A DNA stretch of 64,000 nucleotides, taken from Alloascoidea hylecoeti (lineage: Eukaryota). Location: NCBI GenBank assembly GCA_001600815.1, contig BCKZ01000001.1, forward strand, positions 1,335,389 to 1,399,388. The letters are read 5' to 3'. A program made the position numbers and the translations under genes. Below the pieces are notes generated by a model, which worked only from the letters and a program-made list of their open reading frames with translations, had not been told where the DNA came from and ran no database searches. Position 1 is the first letter of the stretch. Every line of letters begins with the position of its first letter. Shown here piece by piece: positions 50,549 through 60,227 of this stretch.

Positions 50549-53225
50549 TTTAATAATAATAAATAAGAGCAGCCACAAAGCTTGTAGTATTTGAGTCTAC
50601 CTATTATTTGTTTTCTCTCTAGATTTGAGGTCGTTTGAACTAAATCTCGAGAACTTTTAAATTTGATACGCAGAAAAGCTATGGTTATTTCCCTTTAAAC
50701 TAATACTTAAAAACTAAGGCAAAGCAAGCTTAAGTTAAAAAGGGAATTAATGGGTAATAGACCAAGTAAAATAGGAAGTGTAAAGGAAAATAAAATATTG
50801 AGAAAGTAAGTGGTATAAATATATAATATATAGAATCTTATAGATAGGGGGGCTCCATATGCATCTAAGTTTAAGTAATTCATTTAAAAAGAAAGTAGAA
50901 TCACATATTTCTGAGCCTGTTAATATATGCATTATCTTTCAACTTTAGAGATCGTTTATAATCTGGGGTCAGTTTTTCAAGGCTTTAGTAAAATAACTAA
51001 CGCTCGAGATAGTTAAAGTTTTATAATCACTCTAGATATTAATTGCATTAGCTGGTATAATAGGCGTATGATATAGTGCTAGAATTATGGGGACGCTTAA
51101 TTATATAAAATATAAGGGGAAATAAATATTATAATTAAATTATGACAGTATATCAGCTCATCAATCATAATTGGAATTTTCTATTATGGCGCAATTGTTT
51201 TTTCCTTGTAGCCATTCACGGGAATTCAGATCTAGATGATGACTTTAGTTAATTATGTTATAAACACTCTCGAATTTATAATTATAAACTTAGTTATAAG
51301 TGATAATATTGAAATTTAATAAGTATAAGAAACTATACTTATAATTAAATCTTAATTGCATTTGTTCTTTTTAAAACATATTATAGATCTATAACAAATC
51401 GATAATAATATACACTATATAATTTATTTTCCTGATAATCAGAATTTCAGAAAGTTTAAGCTTTTTTTCAGCCGGTCGTATAGCATGGCCAGAGAGTATG
51501 CACAGAAGGAAACTCGATTAGAAAGCCATAATTAATTGAAAGTTGAAACACATCACAACACAATTGTAGCGACAACAACACCACCAGTGATTCACCAGGT
51601 CTGGTGATAATACCTAATACGTTGCGTTTAAATTTTTTGTTGCTCCAGAGCTATCACTGGTTAATAGTATTAATACATTAATTCGAGGAATATTGAATTA
51701 ATTGAGCAGACATTAACTCGAGCATAATTCACGCACGCGCAAAGTTGATGAGTATAATAAGTCATAAAATAATAATTGCTAGCTTTAGCTAGTAAGTACT
51801 AAGTACTAAGTAATAACCATCATGTCAAGCTTAAAAAGTTGACGTTATCTATTAGATCGTTAGAATTAACGGCTATAAATTTCTTTTTTTAAACTGTATC
51901 TCGATTTATTGACATCGCCGGCAATTAGATATCTGAAATTTTCAAAGATCAATATTACAAATTACAATATTATGTTAATATTTCCCATTTAGTATACATA
52001 TACCGAATTCACTGTGAAAATTTGGAAATACAGCTCACGACAGAGCGCTGCATAAGTTATTTAAATTTATTATATTTGTCGCCAAATATAATTAGCATTA
52101 CAATCATTTGGTATATTAAAAATAGAATAATATTAACTATAAATATATATCATGATTCTTTTCCTTCAAAAGAGGAAATCTTTCCTTTGATTTTCCTTTT
52201 CTTTTATTAAACTCAAATATATATTGCAATTGGGCAATTGCAATGGTCTCACACGACCATTATCCCAATTAATTGCAGTTGGGATACTATAATATCGCTA
52301 CAAATTACATGGATATCCCCCTCTTTTGGTGTAGTAGAAGCTGTCGATCTCAACTGATTTCAATTGACAGTAATAGCTGATAATAATGAGTTAGCTTTTT
52401 AATCATTGCCATTGATCTAGAGTTATAATTAGGTATAGATAGAGCAGATCCAATTGTAAGCGCTGAAAAAAATGTAATACCCGCGGAGAATTCCATCAAT
52501 ATTATTCAATTTAAAGCTGTAATTGGCCATAGTAGTATATGAATAATATTATTAAGATTACGAAACATGTCACATGGTCATTTTTGATAAACGAATAAAT
52601 AAATATTATAATGCTTATATAAAAAAAAAAAAAAAAAAAAAAAACTGCAGTTAGTAGCTACTACTAATTAATAGAACATTAATATTTATAATAGGAGAAA
52701 GAAAAATTAAAAAACTGGCGCCTGTTACTTTCAACTTCCGCTAAATAAGCTTGTTTAACATGTGCCTGCCGCCTTCGAAATCCGGTTTAAAATAAAGCAG
52801 ATGAAACTTGAAACTTTGATAGGTGTTATATTTAATTGAGTATAAGGCTGCTATAAGATCTTAATTTTAAATGTTGCTGACCTGCCACCCTTCTATATCA
52901 CTGATATGTATAAATTATATAATTGTCGTCAGCAAGACATTATAAGTTAACGTTATAACTGCGTGGTGTGAGCCTTATATAAACTTAAGACAATAATGTA
53001 GAAACAAATCTTCAATAAAACTGTATAGAATATATAATCGGAATTTTGAAAAATACTTCGTTATGTAACAGACTAACAGTATTATAGGATGAACGTGTTG
53101 ACTATATGGCGCACCTGAAGAGTTCACAATAAGTTAATTAGCTTCTTGGCGTAACGGCTAGATCAGGTATTGTAGTTCACGAATAAACTTTGTAAGTCGA
53201 AACATTGTATAGGCTACACAATTAT

Positions 53226-54540
53226 CTTCTTTTTGTAACCTTTCATAGGATCCTCAATTAAAACTTCTAACTAGAAACTATTTTTTGATATGTATTTGTT
53301 GCTTTCTACGAATCTGTTTCCACCTTTAAGTTATTAAGCGCTGTAAAGTATCTTGTGAAAGCAACTTCATCTGCGTCTTCATCTATATCGACTCTTCCTA
53401 ATCTGAAACGCTGTTTAATCATTTAACAAGACATCTGAGTCTTCAGCTGACTAAGAACCACCATAAGGAAACTTTTAAATTAAACGTCGACATTGTTCGA
53501 TCTTCTGGAGGGCTGTTAACATCTTCTTTGGGAATACTAAATATGCCAATTCTAAGCTCTGTATCTTCAGATCCAAATAGCGCCGCTACCAAATATAAAG
53601 TATCTGGTAGAATCAGTTACTTCTATCTAGATCAAGAAAAGGGTAAATAAATTAATAAAAATCTTCCTAACATCAGAGGATTTTTCTAAAAAAAAAAATA
53701 TTAATTTTTTTAACTTTATAGAAAAAATTTATAATTTCCAATTAATTGTAGAATTTCTAACTAGAAACTATATATGCAGGTATTTAATTGAGGAAATCAC
53801 TAAAAGAATGAAAAATTTTCTACATCTTCATATTAAATCTTCATATACCGGTATATTATTCTTCCTTCTCTGAAAAGTTTTAAAATGTTTTTGTTTGTCT
53901 TATTTTCTCAAGGATGATTAAGATATTCAACTTCCTCAGTCTATTTCATACATATGCATATGAATTTAAATTTTGTAGTGGTCCCTGCATATCTTATGAT
54001 CTTTCTTAACTCCAAATGCACTTTTTTTTGGGGGTAAATTGGTCCTTCTTTTCTATATTTTATTCCTTGATATTTATTATCAATGTTTTAATTCCGAGTC
54101 TGTCAGATCCCAGCATCTTTCTCATTAAGATGGTCAACGATTCTTCTAACATCTGACATAGAATGAACACCGAGTCACCGACTATCAGAAACATTATAAT
54201 CAAGTAGGATTAGAATAACACAAAATAATGGTTATATCATTGTTAATAAGGAAAAGGATATGTTCTCTATCAAACGCTGTAATGGAACCAACTAAACTCT
54301 AATGGCTGATCCTTATTTTAGTCTATGGATTTTAGTAGTTAAACAAGTTCATATTAAAGATTAACATAGGGATGAACTTTCAAGGAAGAAACTAAGATAC
54401 ATGAAACGCATTCTATTTATAGCAATTTATGACAGCTTCACACTTTTACAACTTTACAATTAAGTCAAGTTTTTTTTTAATTTTGTATAATTTCCGATTA
54501 AGATATGTAAACAATTTAGACGTCTAACTAGAAATTGATC
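53226..54540 (-). mobile_element. Older stacked 3'-end fragments of a LINE-like element (copies A about 53226-53285, B about 53703-54070, C about 54469-54540)
   Basis: Each shows a T-run/TAA...CAATTA or CGATTA...TAACTAGAAA block (53268, 53758, 54525) matching 54622. Copy B also keeps a broken ORF end (IRYAGT...EID*GS*IS*SSLRK*) homologous to IRFAGT...EIDWGILISKNLKK*. Confidence 0.72.
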
Positions 54541-54580
54541 ACTCCAAGGGTATAAAACATCTTCTCCTTTACATCTTTTT

Positions 54581-55409
54581 CTTTTTTTTTAACTTTTCAT
54601 ATATTTTCCAATTAGATTATATAACTAGAAACTATGTAAATTCTGAGGAAATCTCTACTATATATAGTGAAATAAAAACTTCTCTTTCTATTCTTCTTAT
54701 TTTTGTGTATTCTTGACACTCTTCTTTCTTCCCTTCTTATGTACCTAGACCACCTTGAAAGTAAATTTTTTTTTTTTTTTTAGATATATTTTACTTTTTC
54801 AAGTTTTTAGATATTAGAATCCCCCAATCAATCTCATTTAATATTTGTGGTGGTGTCCCTGCAAATCTAATATTTTTCTCTAGTGCCTTTTTGATAAAAG
54901 CCCCATTTTGTTCTATATGGTTATCTTTTGGATTTATGATCAATAATTTGATCTCAATTCTATCGCTTCCTAACATCAACTTCTTTAGTATTCTTATGGT
55001 TGAGCAATCTTCAAATAGATGTAAGATGTCGTCTTTACCTTGTTGACATAAACTACAAATATCAGATTTTTTCGCATTTTTTTGCATTTTTTTGCATTTT
55101 TGTTAGGATGTAGCATATGAGTAACGTATCCCAAGCTGAGTAAATGTACCCATTGTGTCTCCTCAGGGTGTTTCTTATATGTTTCTTTGATAAATCCCCA
55201 CCATTTCTTCCAATTTTCATTTTTTAGTTCCGGAATTAACTGCATCCATTTGTTTGGTTTCAGTATAATTTTGTTTTTATTATACTACTTTTGGCTTATT
55301 GATTTAATTGAGTATTTGGATATGTTTTCTTCTTCCATGTCTTTTATTCTTTTTTCGATATCTTCTCCTGCTGGGTTTTCTACCAATTTTTGTAACGCTT
55401 CTGAGTAAA
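54581..55409 (-). mobile_element. 5'-truncated non-LTR retrotransposon (L1/Zorro-like ORF2 C-terminus, 3'UTR, oligo-A)
   Basis: C-terminal CCHC finger CSLCQQGKDDILHLFEDC preceded by a Trp-rich WKKWW segment; stop at 54791; minus-strand A-runs at 54766-54781 and 54582-54590; frameshift at a 10-bp tandem repeat (55074-55101); 20-bp direct repeat at 54734-54753 and 55410-55429. Confidence 0.82.
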
Positions 55410-55472
55410 TTCTTATGTACCTAGACCACATTACTGTAAGTACAATACAGTTTTCCAGAACCTCATCGGAAA

Positions 55473-55546
55473 GGTCTCTTGGCCCAGTTGGTTAAGGCAC
55501 CGTGCTAATAACGCGGGGATCAGCAGTTCGATCCTGCTAGAGACCA
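55473..55546 (+). tRNA. tRNA-Ile(AAT), intronless
   Basis: GGTCTCT/AGAGACC acceptor stem, anticodon loop CT-AAT-AA, T-arm AGCAG-TTCGATC-CTGCT, downstream T-run terminator. Confidence 0.97.
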
Positions 55547-55939
55547 TCTTTTTGGACTTTTTTTTACAGATTTAAAATCTGTCAATAGATTACCCGGCTT
55601 ACCTTGACCAAACTTTCATTAAAAAGCGATAAGAGACATTTTTTTTTATCAAACTTTCATTTTTTTATTTATTCCCTTTAGAAATTGTTTCCTGATTTAT
55701 TAAAAAAGCAAAAACCCCCTTGTTTGTTAAGCTTATGTTAGTACAGCCCAGTTTTTTGCGTTCTTTATTTTAAGGTTTCAGAAACGTAGAAGTGACCCCG
55801 TTAAGGAGGAAACATAGTTTGATAGTTATCATAATTCATTCCAAAGAGACCCTTGGTTGGTGGAATATTGTTCATAATAAAGTTTATAATTGGTTTCAAA
55901 ATTTAAAAGCTTGCAAATTATTAATTGAAGTCTGAAGTC

Positions 55940-58900
55940 ATGGCAAGGACATCGTTGAGTAGGGGCTCCTTGATGGATGAGAATGACGAGGAAAATAGGG
56001 ATACATTGGATTCTTCCGAAGAAGAAGAAGAAGAAAATGAATCCGAGTATGAAAAGGTATGTATAGACTCAATGATATCAATTGATTTTTATAATTCTAA
56101 GTGATATAATTATTAGGTTCGAGATGGATTTATTATTGATGATAATGACGAAGAAGAAGAGATTTCTAGAGAACATAAAGCAAAAAAAAGAAAACGTTCA
56201 AGCCACCATGGACACAGAAAACATGGAAGAAGTAAAAGAGATGACGAATTAGATGAAGATGACCTTGATTTACTACTTGAAAACAATACGGGGGTAGTGA
56301 ACTATGAAGATTCGGTAAGTGTTTACATTTTTGAAGTTTTATATATTAATATTAACTAACTTTCATTTTAAGGGGAGCAAAAGGTCAAAAAATGGGGAAT
56401 CACGTAGTATTCTTGATCAGATGTTTGATGATGATATTGAAGATATTGACGATGATGATGATGATGCCGACGAAGGTCGTGAACACAGGAGATTTACAAA
56501 TCATGAAACTCTAGTTCACAATAGTAGAAAAATGTTAGATGACCTCGAAGATTTTATTACAGATGATACATCTTCAGAAAATGAAGAAGGAAATAATACT
56601 AGATATGACAAAAGACTTAAATCTGCAACGAGACACAGCACCAGCGCAACTACAAATCATTTTGATGATGACAAACTTGCCGAATTATATGATATTTTTG
56701 GTGATGGTAAAGAGTACGCATGGGCATTAGACGTTGAAGGAGACCATGATGCGGAGGATGAAGATGGTCAGTCTGATAATGAAACACCGAAACTCCATGA
56801 TATATTTGAGCAGAGCGAACTGAAGGAACGGATGTTAACAGATGAGGACAATACCATAAGAGTTTTAGACGTACCTGAGCGTTATCAGAAGCTTCGGGAA
56901 TCATTCAAATCAGGCTATAAATCGAATGATACCAATTTCCAAGAAGAACAAGAATGGGTTTCAACTAGTTTTGTCCAGGAGAAATTCCTAGAAGAAGATC
57001 CACTTGAGGTGCCAACTGCAGAAGCAGTTAAAAATATTTTAGTATTTCTTGTGAAAGAACAACTGGAGGTTCCATTCATCTGGTATCATAGGCGTGATTA
57101 TATGCTCTACGTGGAGGAGGGAAAGACGGCTACCTTAATCTTGGACAATAATGATCTTTGGAGAATATTGCAACTAGACGTTGAGTATCGTGCTATCCAT
57201 GAACAGCGGCAGATAGTAGAAAAGTTATATGAAACAATTGATAAAGATGATCCAATTTATGAAGATATCTACAGAATGGCCGACAGTATCATCTCCTATC
57301 AAGATTTATTTGATTATTTGCAATTTCAATACTCTAGCACCCTGAGAATTAATAACGAAGGATCAACAAGAAGACATCATAAATATGGTCTTTATGATAG
57401 AATCCGGAACGATAGAATGTATGATCTTGTTAGAGGTATAGGAATAGCTGCTAGGGAAGTTGGTGAAAATATTATATCCACTGATCGAGTCTTTCAAACC
57501 ATAGATACCGATGAATATCCGGAGGATATTGTAAACAGATTATTAGAGGATCCACAGGGAATGTTTCATAATAAAGCTCAATACACGAGTGCTGCCAAAG
57601 AGATGTTTGCACAGGAGCTAAATCATGATCCAAGGATTCGTCGTGCTGTTAGAAATTATTATTCACTTTACTGTATGTTTTCAGTTGCAGTGACTGAAAA
57701 GGGTAAACTCAAAATTGATGACAAGTCGCCTTACTATGATTTCAAATATGCAATTAACTTATCCAAACAGTTGCTTAATGGCCATCCAGATAGGTATTTA
57801 AGAATGCTAGAAGCGGAGTCAAAAGGATATATATTTCTTAAAGTTTTTTTACCTGAATATGAAGACTTTATTGAACAATTGAAAACTAATATTTTATCAG
57901 AGAATGATGGCGCTTATGCCACCGCTTGGAATGAATTTAGGTTGGAAACGTTAAATGCAACCCTTCAAAAATTGCAGCCTTTGATGGAACGTAGCATCAA
58001 AGAAGAGCTTAGGAAGGAGTGTGAAAGATACTTATTTTCCTTGGTTCGTGATTCTGTTGGAGTAATGCTTAGACAAGCTCCATTTAAACCCCCGGCTTAT
58101 GTTCCAGGAACTGTTCCTCGTGTTCTTACTATTTCGTTTGGATTTGGAAATCCTTATAAAGATGCTGTTTTTGGGTTTTATTTAGACGAAAATGGAACTA
58201 ATTCTGAACATGTAAAATTTGAAAGTGAACCTAAATTAGCAGAATTTAGGCTTGAATTCGTTAATTTAGTTAAGCGTCGGAAACCTGATGTAATTGGTAT
58301 TTGCGGCTATACTATTGAGTCTGATGGCCTTCGAGCAATTTTGGATGAGATAATAAAGGAGGAAGAGCTTTCAACAGTAAATGAAGATGAGAATCCTATA
58401 TTAATCCCATTGGTATGGGTTCGTGATGATGTAGCAAGATTGTACCAGAACTCCAAACGTGCATTGGCTGAATTTCCTGATCAACCACAAGTTGGAAGAT
58501 ATTGTGTTGGACTTGCTCGTTATTTACAATCGCCCCTATTGGAATATTTAAATCTCGGTAAGGATGTTAGATCAATTCAATTTGATCCACATCAAAGACT
58601 GCTTACCGAAGAAAGATTACAGGAGGCGATTGACTCTTCATTTGTTGATGTAGTAAATACTGTTGGTGTTGATATTAATCAAGCAGTTAATGAACAATAT
58701 TATGCGGCAGCACTGCCCTATGTTTGTGGTTTGGGTCCCAGGAAGGCTTCTGGAGTATTACAGGCAATCCAAGCAAGGGGATCTAGGCTCTTAAATCGTA
58801 CAGAATTAATTACTGGTCAAATAACCACAAAAACTATATTTATGAATTGTGCTAGCTTTTTGAAGATACCTTATGAGGAAAATACGTTTAGAAATGAGGA

Positions 58901-60227
58901 AATTGAGCTGCTGGACGCTACGAGAATACATCCCGAAGATTATGATCTTGCAAGAAAAATGGCTGGTGATGCTTTAGATCTAGACGAGGAAGATTTATTA
59001 GATCTGGAAACAACTGGGGGTGTGATTTCTCAGATTATTGGCAATGATGAAACATATAAATTAAATGACCTTGAGTTAGAATCATATGATCGAGAGCTTT
59101 CGAAATTAGATTCTAGCCTCAGGAAGAGGTTCAACTTGGAGTTAATTAAGCAGGAATTGCAAAATAACTACGGCGAATTGAGAGATGACATGATTCAGCT
59201 GAGCACAGATGATGTTTTTACTATTTTAACAGGTGAAACTAAGGACACATTACGAGAGGGTATGATTGTTCCTGTCCTGATTAAGCGGATTTTTTCCAGT
59301 TTTCTAATTGTTAAATTGCCTTGTATGATCGAAGGAGTTGTGCAACGACAGTACATTACCGACCGTGAGGATGTTCCTCATCCATCTGTTTTATTTCATC
59401 CCAATCAAACGGTATCAGCGAAACTAATAAAACTCGACAAAGAAAATTTTAAAGCTGAGCTATCCACTAGGGAAAATGAGGTTTCCGACGCTCGTGAAAA
59501 TGCTAAAAAGAAACAATTCTTTTGTAAAAGTGAGACTTGGGATTTTGAGCAAGAGCAGTTAGATAGGCAACAGGAATCCCGAAAGAAACAGGCAGAAGCC
59601 AGAGCAAGTAGGGTTGTTAAACATAGATTATTCAGAAATATGGACTCAAAGGAGGCAGAAAGATTTTTGGAACCATACCAAAGAGGGGACGTTATCATCC
59701 GTCCTTCATCACGTGGTATTGATCATCTTGTAGTTACTTGGAAAGTCGGCAAAAACGTATATCAACATTTGGATATTAAAGAAAAAGATAAACCTAATGA
59801 ATATTCGCTTGGACGCAAATTAGAAATCGAGGATCAAACTTACGCAGATCTTGATGAATTGATTTTATATCATATCAAATCAAAAGCTAAAAAGATTGAT
59901 GAGCTTATTCATTCCGAGAAATGTTATAAAGATGTCGATACTCTTGATAAAATCATTCTTCAACTTTCCAACTCTAATCCCAATCGGGCCTACTATGGAT
60001 TTGCTTTAAATCCAACGAACCCTGGCTATTTTTTTCTTCATGTAAAACCTCCCAAGAGCAATAATATAATTGGTTGGCATGTTAAAGTTGTCATTGACGG
60101 GTATATGATGAGGGGTCACTTTTATACAGATCCGATGTCTCTGTGTAATGGATTGAAAACTCTGATGATGAGTGAGGCTGAAAACAAAAGGAACCTGCCG
60201 AAGAAAGGTCATCATCGTAGATTTTAA
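55940..60227 (+). CDS. SPT6: Transcription elongation factor / histone chaperone Spt6; exons 55940-56056, 56117-56314, 56373-60227
   Basis: Acidic N-terminus (DSSEEEE, VRDGFIID), LEVPFIWYHRRDY, GLGPRKA, LLDATRIHPEDYDLARKMA, SH2 (IIRPSSRG); two short introns; 1389 aa. Confidence 0.95.

Follow-up and report, generated by a model that had tools for sequence, protein, structure and literature searches.

In the 64-kb stretch of Alloascoidea hylecoeti DNA analyzed here (hereafter, the window), at least four, and probably five, broken copies of a LINE-type element, four of whose conserved 3' termini are located within 53226–54631 on the same strand, lie head-on upstream of a tRNA-Ile(AAT) gene, which is the sole tRNA gene of the window (Table 1). 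In all four window copies, and in a further copy encoded within the database protein P0003, the 5' end of the element is directed towards the 5' end of a tRNA gene (a putative one in P0003). The junctions lie at -43, -63 and -71 in the window and at about -57 in P0003, a geometry that comes from two loci, the window locus having been chosen because of its tRNA. It is plausible that the element targets sites upstream of tRNA genes, and this is the reading towards which we lean. The broader proposal, which we regard as evenly balanced, is that a LINE of budding yeasts has independently evolved the targeting of Pol III genes, inserting approximately 45–65 bp upstream with its 5' end tRNA-ward, and that the 5' edges of resident copies prime new ones, giving head-to-tail stacks; this would be the first such case outside the dictyostelids.

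Organization of the stack upstream of tRNA-Ile

The motif TAACTAGAAA occurs exactly four times in the window, always on the plus strand (53268, 53758, 54525, and 54622), compared with a chance count of 0.45 per shuffle, and none of the 100 shuffles reached four. The four blocks, in which the first-pass annotation had already recognized homologous units in one orientation, align as a single terminus of approximately 65 nt, whose minus-strand sequence is ..ATAGTTTCTAGTTA..TTAATTGGAAA.TATA.TGAAAAGTT followed by an A-run. The order within the terminus is thus hairpin arms, TGAAAAGTT and A-tail (the arms of D1 are located at 54622–54631 and 54605–54614), and all four copies finish in ..TGAAAAGTT with A7 to A9 or A-rich runs. 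The reverse transcriptase probably recognizes this conserved combination of 3' hairpin, TGAAAAGTT and A-tail. In Smith–Waterman comparisons, the likeness to copy D (D1 and D2 in Table 1) exceeded that of shuffled sequences for A and C as well as for B (z 12.8).

Table 1. Coordinates of the LINE-type copies, their junctions and the adjacent tRNA gene (window positions).
Feature	Position	Strand	Basis
A, outermost 3' end copy	53226-53300	-	Smith-Waterman z 10.1; significant likeness limited to terminal 67 nt
B, older copy: degenerate ORF2 C-terminus (53974-54161), 3' UTR, hairpin, A7 tail	53705-54165	-	blastn, tblastn, hhalign
Spacer without LINE similarity and without ORF of at least 40 aa	54216-54471	.	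Smith-Waterman against D z -1.3
C, approximately 100-nt 3' end copy, A9 tail	54472-54577	-	alignment; Smith-Waterman against D z 5.1
D1, 3' UTR, 3' hairpin and A-tail (54578-54590)	54578-54733	-	alignment, hairpin, depth
Distal exact copy of the 20-mer	54734-54753	.	sequence search and alignment with copies A and B
D2, 5'-truncated LINE fragment ending ..TTTCAAG	54754-55401	-	ORFs, zf-RVT, relatives, depth
8-nt filler TGAGTAAA at the 5' junction	55402-55409	.	other genomic copies depart after 55401
tRNA-proximal exact 20-mer TTCTTATGTACCTAGACCAC, proposed target-site duplication	55410-55429	.	sequence search
Unique 43-nt flank, insertion site to tRNA	55430-55472	.	sequence
tRNA-Ile(AAT), presumed target	55473-55546	+	ARAGORN; Rfam tRNA 56.4 bits, E 1.2e-10

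The spacer between B and C is 256 nt long, has a depth of approximately 2x on 54310–54403, and gave no tblastn match at E<1. An Rfam search of the stack, in which E values as high as 10 were admitted, revealed no relic tRNA there. Contigs that cross 55356–55499, at the boundary between the stack and the tRNA gene, without error are listed for runs X1, X2, and X3. The window as a whole is gene-dense, with 22 ORFs of at least 150 aa, and the GC content of the stack region is approximately 30%.

Coding region and classification

Copies B and D run on into homologous ORF2-type C-termini with a CCHC/zf-RVT motif, in agreement with the earlier claim that two of the blocks continue into such sequences; the frame of B matches the family profile with an hhalign E of 1.5e-9. 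In copy A, a very decayed ORF reaching approximately 53620 may be discerned by eye; homology of the copy A ORF to the family is unsupported (hhalign E 0.2). The translation of copy D contains an intact C-x2-C-x8-H-x4-C, and the description of the best-preserved copy as the one adjoining tRNA-Ile was borne out. The D2 part covers approximately 200 codons of the ORF2 C-terminus, with the stop codon TAA at 54791–54793 and an internal A16 at 54766–54781. Besides one in-frame TAG (55285–55287), copy D has a (GCATTTTTTT) repeat that contains a frameshift; the TAG is TGG in other copies, the T>C change at 55286 accounting for 1162.3 of the 1162.3 depth in X1.

The best family for D2 was zf-RVT (PF13966), with E 0.0033 and 18.5 bits, which is below the gathering cut-off of 27.5. 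The same domain was matched by three of ten family members (best E 3.5e-4), all below the cut-off, and 27 of the 30 named ESM-Atlas neighbors belonged to zf-RVT clusters (score 0.96). A HMMER scan of 1.84 billion representatives returned eight relatives at E<=0.001, seven of which are fragments of 63–159 aa with 59–83% identity; the eighth, a repetitive protein of 1122 aa with 26% identity, was judged spurious. The search for near-length relatives gave six fragments. With a 103-aa piece and a 10-row alignment as queries, the two protein libraries yielded no credible relative longer than 159 aa and no match to any long ORF2. The PDB profile search with the ORF remained at the chance level (E 0.55 and 0.77), and its AF2 model had a mean pLDDT of 48.6. 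RT and endonuclease domains are absent from the 64-kb window, and no ORF1 was found.

For a window that carries no RT, we infer from these features that the family is a LINE-type non-LTR retrotransposon with an L1-type ORF2 C-terminus. The alternative that the blocks are the ends of solo LTRs or of some other tRNA-associated element, and that the ORF is unrelated to them, draws on the sub-threshold Pfam matches and on the fact that, in the available part of a review, every described yeast tRNA-targeting element is of the LTR type (PMC5911963). However, the copies show A-tails and a gradient of 5' truncation, LTR-like terminal repeat pairs were not found, and zf-RVT ranks first by two methods, which makes this alternative highly improbable.

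Abundance and relative age of the copies

In contigs of four public runs, the summed depth of the 3' end (54592–54685) was 275–340x that of a single copy and the summed depth of the ORF was approximately 12–56x (19–56x for D2 in X1), with the tool's own warning that summed contig depth is not equal to copy number. The family is high-copy and 5'-truncated. Copy D departs little from the family consensus, with 12 positions within 54599–55401 at which at least 85% of the X1 depth differed, and copies A–C were covered only approximately 1–3x at a likeness of at least 80%. The youngest copy is therefore the one that adjoins the tRNA. Two joints, 53280>53786 and 53282>54626, were present in all four runs and correspond to contigs mixing A-like, B-like, and D-like parts, which indicates members of the family elsewhere in the genome. 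Among the joints listed in the four runs there was no empty-site joint for D, which is no proof of fixation. A 21-mer taken from the 3' end had no exact match in metagenome contigs, and of the 354 pattern stretches that the ORF fragment gave there, none was confirmed.

These data also bear on whether the stack could stem from a single composite insertion that was duplicated locally in tandem and then diverged. Such an origin would agree with the collinearity of B and D, where 53705–54117 aligns with 54584–54977 over 441 columns at 60% identity (blastn). Nevertheless, the copies differ in length from approximately 75 to approximately 830 nt and each has an A-tail; their identity is only 60–70%, while the D family is repeated hundreds of times genome-wide by depth, and the mixed contigs represent family members at other places. 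We consider tandem duplication very doubtful, and the independent insertions assumed in the first-pass annotation account better for the stack.

Insertion junctions

The 20-mer TTCTTATGTACCTAGACCAC had two exact matches in the window (up to three mismatches being allowed), at 54734 and 55410, with none expected. The tRNA-proximal one starts 63 nt and ends 43 nt before tRNA-Ile, so the interval of 43–63 bp originally reported for the truncated 5' end is exact for the 20-mer; the homology to other genomic copies itself ends at 55401, which is 71 nt before the tRNA (loose ends in all four runs). By eye, the filler TGAGTAAA resembles positions 54758–54765 of the element itself. The two 20-mers bracket the ORF-bearing part, D2, and the distal one breaks a 3' UTR that is uninterrupted in copies A and B (between ..TTTCAG and A..AGGAAG). 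The 5' flank of D2 reads ..GGTACATAAGAATTTACTCA and is not an A-run.

Judging from the sequence, we read the pair as a putative target-site duplication of 20 bp (-43 to -63), but its distal member lies within an apparently continuous 3' UTR. Copy D would then be the product of two successive events at one spot, D1, which is truncated further, followed by D2. The filler may have arisen by template switching. Target-site duplications for A, B, C, and D1 were not identified. We also considered the tRNA-side 20-mer as the remnant of an old copy, the rest of which would be C; this was rejected because C is only approximately 60–70% like D, whereas the 20-mers are identical at 20 of 20 positions.

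A second locus

Residues 97–158 of P0003, which may come from another species, correspond to a truncated copy of the same LINE. The N-terminal part of this protein threads as an antisense tRNA with a T-run at a score of 30.7, which was reached by none of 3000 shuffles and by none of the 522 window ORFs; the true tRNA-Ile antisense ORF was at the top of the window ORFs with 28.2. The terminator term entered the P0003 score after the lysines had been noticed, and without it the score is 23.6. One of the 522 window ORFs exceeds this value, as do some shuffles in a set of 1000 (99th percentile 19.3, maximum 26.5). A first version of the threading test was discarded as far too permissive, since it accepted 1282 of 2000 shuffles as well as 78 of the 169 window ORFs.

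According to this threading, in which the tRNA is read from protein letters, the 5' end of the P0003 copy would lie approximately 57 bp upstream of a putative tRNA, in the same orientation as in the window. No lysine run is encoded in its 5' flank. The T arm of the putative tRNA differs from that of tRNA-Ile, and the two loci would involve two different tRNA genes.

Proposed mechanism and alternative explanations

In the scenario that we propose, target-primed reverse transcription would take place at a fixed position approximately 45–65 bp upstream of tRNA genes, presumably where the Pol III initiation complex has its upstream edge, as for TRE5-A, and with a possible link to TFIIIB. For D2, the plus strand would have been nicked 43 bp and the minus strand 63 bp before the tRNA, both positions being deduced, and the 20 bp between the staggered nicks would have been duplicated. 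Reverse transcription of D2, which presumably began at the 5' edge of D1, would have halted early, giving the 5' truncation at 55401, and the junction would have been closed with the eight filler bases. As each new insertion would fall on the tRNA side of the one before it, the older ones (C, then B and A) would shift outward, and with priming on the 5' edges of resident copies, head-to-tail stacks would grow from the tRNA outward.

Repeated insertion that pushed older copies outward was also the original interpretation of this locus, and it is retained here in part. The position of the youngest copy beside the tRNA agrees with it, but the unrelated 256-nt spacer inside the stack fits a simple outward-push series poorly, and the nearest copy is better read as two events. 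Should the spacer be original DNA, the insertion sites of B and A would have been 300 bp or more away from the tRNA.

The same features may in part be accounted for by self-homing without any Pol III link, in which new copies enter or adjoin older ones (through their A-tails or by homology-assisted priming) after a founder had landed near the tRNA by chance. For its integration, Zorro3 of Candida albicans uses poly(A) tracts (PMC7175516), the tail of D1 directly abuts the 5' end of C, the 5' edge of D1 apparently served to prime D2, and all four termini of the window are clustered. On the other hand, the 5' flanks of D2 and of the P0003 copy are not A-runs. Insertion into tails would leave the newer of two copies on the 3' side, but in this stack the youngest copy is the 5'-most and stands beside the tRNA, and in P0003 another copy adjoins a putative tRNA about as closely. 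We regard self-homing as unlikely, though it is the most serious of the alternatives.

Passive accumulation appears less probable still. Under this explanation, insertion would be near-random or biased to AT-rich or open chromatin, and copies would survive in harmless spots upstream of tRNA genes of a compact genome, in keeping with the gene density of the window, the base composition of the region and the persistence of old decayed copies in the stack. Selection of this kind leaves unaccounted for the uniform orientation of all four copies, the three junctions within -43 to -71 and the matching geometry in P0003. Overall, the targeting of sites upstream of tRNA genes remains the reading that we prefer.

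Comparison with known systems

In the literature searched, no tRNA-targeting LINE has been described in fungi; within the same literature, tRNA targeting by non-LTR elements is limited to the dictyostelids, and in yeasts it is limited to integrase-bearing LTR elements. A 2018 review of Pol III targeting had, in its available part, guessed that fungal LINEs might target in this way (PMC5911963), and a yeast tRNA-targeting LINE would thus be welcome rather than shocking. Possibly, the present element is the first fungal LINE of this type. If the targeting is true, it would represent a third independent route to the tRNA-upstream safe haven and would explain how a compact yeast genome tolerates a few hundred LINE tails. 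In addition, the host group is amenable to genetics and to retrotransposition assays, with Pol III factors available as well, and the reading of the Pol III complex by an endonuclease/RT machine, rather than by an integrase, would become testable.

The closest parallel is TRE5-A (DRE) of Dictyostelium discoideum, a member of the L1 superfamily, which inserts approximately 50 bp upstream of tRNA genes with its 5' end always tRNA-ward (PMC3159450); a distance of 40–54 bp is given in a review table (PMC5911963), and its copies are often 5'-truncated (PMC3159450; PMC5911963). The geometry for which TRE5-A had been invoked at the outset, with a uniform orientation and 5' ends turned towards the tRNA's 5' end, was recovered in our analysis. 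The two elements are alike in their geometry, namely orientation and upstream distance, and in 5' truncation. They differ in that the host of TRE5-A is an amoebozoan, whereas the yeast LINE, known from its last ~200 ORF2 codons, resides in a fungus and has a 3' hairpin with an A-tail and a CCHC C-terminus. A precedent for convergence is provided by NLTR-B of Polysphondylium pallidum and NLTR-A of D. purpureum, non-LTR elements unrelated to the TREs in which tRNA-upstream integration evolved independently, one of the two behaving in a TRE5-like manner (PMC5006619). Their hosts are dictyostelids.

Among the LINEs of yeasts, Zorro3 of C. albicans is of the L1 type and has two ORFs, a poly(A) 3' end, and template switching at 5' junctions; it targets poly(A) tracts, with A-runs on both flanks and no chromosomal preference (PMC7175516). 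In contrast to Zorro3 (and Zorro1/2), the present copies lie before tRNA genes and have no 5' A-run. LINEs are found in six of eight CTG-clade species, including Ace, Bri, and Can in Scheffersomyces stipitis, and are scattered on chromosome arms and subtelomeres (PMC8546629). They are thus common in some budding-yeast clades, and in the available part of that source an association with tRNA goes unmentioned. According to the corresponding part of the review, Ty1, Ty3, Tca8/beta, Tyl3/Ylt1/Tyl6, and Tj1 are LTR elements that insert upstream of Pol III genes, at 1–30 bp or within approximately 1 kb (PMC5911963). The yeast LINE would share its safe haven with these elements, but theirs is an integrase-based system with LTRs, whereas the copies described here are A-tailed, 5'-truncated, and devoid of LTRs.

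Probable LINE copies upstream of tRNA-Ile(AAT)

The window is gene-dense, has a GC content of about 30–38% and comes from a fungal, yeast-like genome; its genes include SPT6, an amino-acid permease, cytochrome c1, Anp1, PIG-N and a Reb1-like Myb protein. The SPT6 homologue apparently starts in a short acidic exon (~55941–56057, then GTATGT), with one or two small introns apparent ahead of a 1302-codon frame (56319–60227).

The motif TAACTAGAAA occurs four times in these 64 kb (53268, 53758, 54525 and 54622), always on the + strand and upstream of tRNA-Ile (0.45 expected; four reached in 0/100 shuffles), and this bears out the four same-strand blocks of the first-pass annotation. All four blocks share a terminus of ~65 nt, which reads, on the minus strand, ATAGTTTCTAGTTA, a loop of variable length, TTAATTGGAAA, TATA, TGAAAAGTT and an A-run. 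With four termini on one strand, each with its own tail, the stack of LINE 3' ends described there stands as an observation, and it is very likely a pile of LINE copies, named A to D towards the tRNA.

Features of the stack and of the adjacent tRNA gene, in window coordinates
Feature	Position	Strand	Remark
A	from 53226	-	only last 67 nt significantly similar, z 10.1
B	from 53705	-	collinear with D through tail, UTR and coding region
C	54472–54577	-	tail fragment of ~100 nt, z 5.1
D	54578–55401	-	copy nearest the tRNA
D1	54578–54733	-	earlier, shorter copy (two-event reading)
D2	54754–55401	-	ORF-bearing part (two-event reading)
Hairpin of D	54605–54631	element strand	directly before TGAAAAGTT and A-tail; same arms in A, B and C
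Filler	55402–55409		8 bases between LINE and tRNA-side 20-mer; resemble 54758–54765
tRNA-Ile(AAT)	55473–55546	+	sole tRNA gene of the 64-kb window

The alignment of B with D runs from the tail via about 130 nt of UTR into the coding region, at 60% identity over 441 columns (Smith–Waterman z 12.8), and the frame of B matches the family profile at E 1.5e-9, so that two copies do share an ORF C-terminus, as had been claimed; for the ORF remnant apparent in A, homology was not supported (E 0.2). Because the copies differ in length, carry individual tails and are 60–70% identical, A to D are separate insertions, as the first reading had held, and a recent tandem duplication was rejected on these grounds. 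Separating C from B are 256 nt (54216–54471) that are unlike the LINE (z -1.3), have no tblastn match below E 1 and no ORF of at least 40 aa, and do not fit a simple series of copies pushed outward; within them, 54310–54403 shows about twofold depth and therefore has one further copy elsewhere in the genome.

A low-copy repeat at 53088–53163 has about 4.5 times the single-copy depth in all four public sequencing runs compared (X1–X4), and contigs diverge from the window at 53163 (five each in X1–X3, four in X4). Rfam returned nothing at this repeat. Before the stack arrived, it lay only about 100–170 bp from the tRNA, and for this reason it could be what is left of some other tRNA-associated element, e.g., a solo LTR.

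Fold predictions for 4/4 copies join the conserved decamers TTTCTAGTTA and TAATTGGAAA (element strand) into a hairpin, with loops of 3 to about 22 nt. Since the arms show no compensatory changes among the four copies and the fold z-scores are weak (-1.85, -2.48, 0.10 and -0.39), this candidate 3' structure is a lead only; it may act as a recognition signal for the reverse transcriptase.

Element class, abundance and decay

D codes for about 200 codons (stop at 54791–54793), and its C-terminal part (..SDICSLCQQGKDDILHLFEDC..) reads C-x2-C-x8-H-x4-C, the intact CCHC finger noted earlier in the copy nearest the tRNA. The top Pfam family was zf-RVT (PF13966), with every match below its cut-off (window piece, E 0.0033; 3/10 family members, best E 3.5e-4). 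In the ESM Atlas, zf-RVT clusters were 27 of the 30 named neighbours (score 0.96) of P0009, a member of the family. HMMER against 1.84 billion representatives gave eight matches at E <=0.001, seven of them fragments of 63–159 aa with 59–83% identity to D; the eighth (1122 aa) was discounted as a repetitive protein. As only such short fragments were found, with no other relative longer than 159 aa, an intact ORF2 of this family is absent from the protein libraries searched, and no RT, endonuclease or ORF1 was seen in the window or the library relatives.

Contigs of X1–X4 (three runs labelled organism A, from two studies, and one wood-decay metagenome) were mapped to 52900–55700 at >=80% likeness. 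Relative to single-copy flanks, summed depth was 338, 275, 304 and 321x (X1, X2, X3 and X4) at the 3' end (54592–54685), about 12–56x in the ORF bins and about 1–3x in those covering A, B and C. Since depth summed over contigs does not equal copy number, these values are read only as “high-copy, 3'-biased,” the pattern by which LINEs betray 5' truncation. Past 55401, other copies continue with different sequence, and the loose ends there in 4/4 runs fix the truncation point of D. Of the locus words sampled, a fraction of 0.81–0.86 was present in each run; given the presence of the locus in the wood-decay metagenome, this yeast occurs in decaying wood.

Compared with other copies, D has TGG>TAG at 55286, an expanded, frameshifting GCATTTTTTT repeat near 55074–55084 and a 6-nt deletion after 54877, and it differs from X1 at 12 positions in >=85% of depth. 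These changes mark D as a slightly degraded copy from a family with recent activity; A–C are older copies or members of other subfamilies. Across the short GCATTTTTTT-type repeat at 55062–55100, D is 7–8 nt longer than other genomic copies and the ORF2 frame is shifted.

Insertion model and putative second locus

The 20-mer TTCTTATGTACCTAGACCAC occurs exactly twice in the window, at 54734–54753 and 55410–55429 (0 expected). The distal occurrence lies inside the 3' UTR, between ..TTTCAAG and AAGGGAAG, where A and B are uninterrupted (..TTTCAG joined directly to A..AGGAAG). Its tRNA-side partner was also considered as a relic of an older copy with C as the rest, and this was rejected, C being 60–70% like D and the 20-mers 20/20 identical. 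The pair is most simply read as a target-site duplication of 20 bp, made when D2 inserted beside D1. Nicks would have been placed 43 bp (+ strand) and 63 bp (- strand) upstream of the tRNA, and cDNA synthesis would have started where the UTR of the incoming RNA met the 5' edge of D1. The 20-mer may be target DNA or native to the UTR of the D subfamily; with either origin, the 5' junctions of D1, D2 and, earlier, C would all fall in the same ~20 bp.

Among the seven fragments is P0003, from an NCBI contig of 3,915 bp; its LINE part (residues 97–158) is preceded by 96 non-LINE residues. Proteins were back-translated to degenerate antisense DNA and scored for a cloverleaf (acceptor and T stems, T loop, T8, G10, A14, GG); a first scoring version was too permissive to be of use and was discarded. 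In the log-odds version P0003 scored 23.6 (1000 shuffles: 99th percentile 19.3, maximum 26.5), with 1/522 window ORFs above it. With a T-run terminator term, added post hoc, it scored 30.7, reached by 0/3000 shuffles (maximum 27.9) and 0/522 window ORFs, among which the true antisense tRNA-Ile ORF ranked top (28.2). In the thread, built from back-translated protein letters, codon 76 contains tRNA position 1, so that the truncated 5' end of this LINE probably sits some 57 bp upstream of another, putative tRNA gene, again 5' to 5'.

From these two loci, the best explanation, and a reasonably probable one, is that the LINE targets tRNA genes; homing of new copies to older ones is unlikely, and passive survival of copies in a safe haven near the tRNA seems quite improbable.

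Comparison with known systems

Zorro3 of Candida albicans, the best-known yeast LINE, is described in PMC7175516 as inserting into poly(A), with A-runs on both flanks; unlike it, D and the P0003 copy have 5' flanks without an A-run. Tail-targeting of the Zorro3 kind would place younger copies farther from the tRNA, the reverse of the stack seen. The account of S. stipitis LINEs in PMC8546629 describes them as scattered, a tRNA link going unmentioned there, and the survey in a 2018 review (PMC5911963) places tRNA-targeting non-LTR elements only in dictyostelids, with only LTR elements in yeasts. Our full-text literature searches, subscription-only papers aside, found no tRNA-targeting LINE in a fungus. 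TRE5-A of Dictyostelium is reported to insert about 50 bp (40–54) upstream of tRNA genes (PMC3159450; PMC5911963, Table 1), its 5' end always towards the tRNA 5' end and often truncated (PMC3159450). The stack at tRNA-Ile has this same geometry in distance and orientation, as first proposed, and, if confirmed, the element would be a fungal, L1-type counterpart of TRE5.
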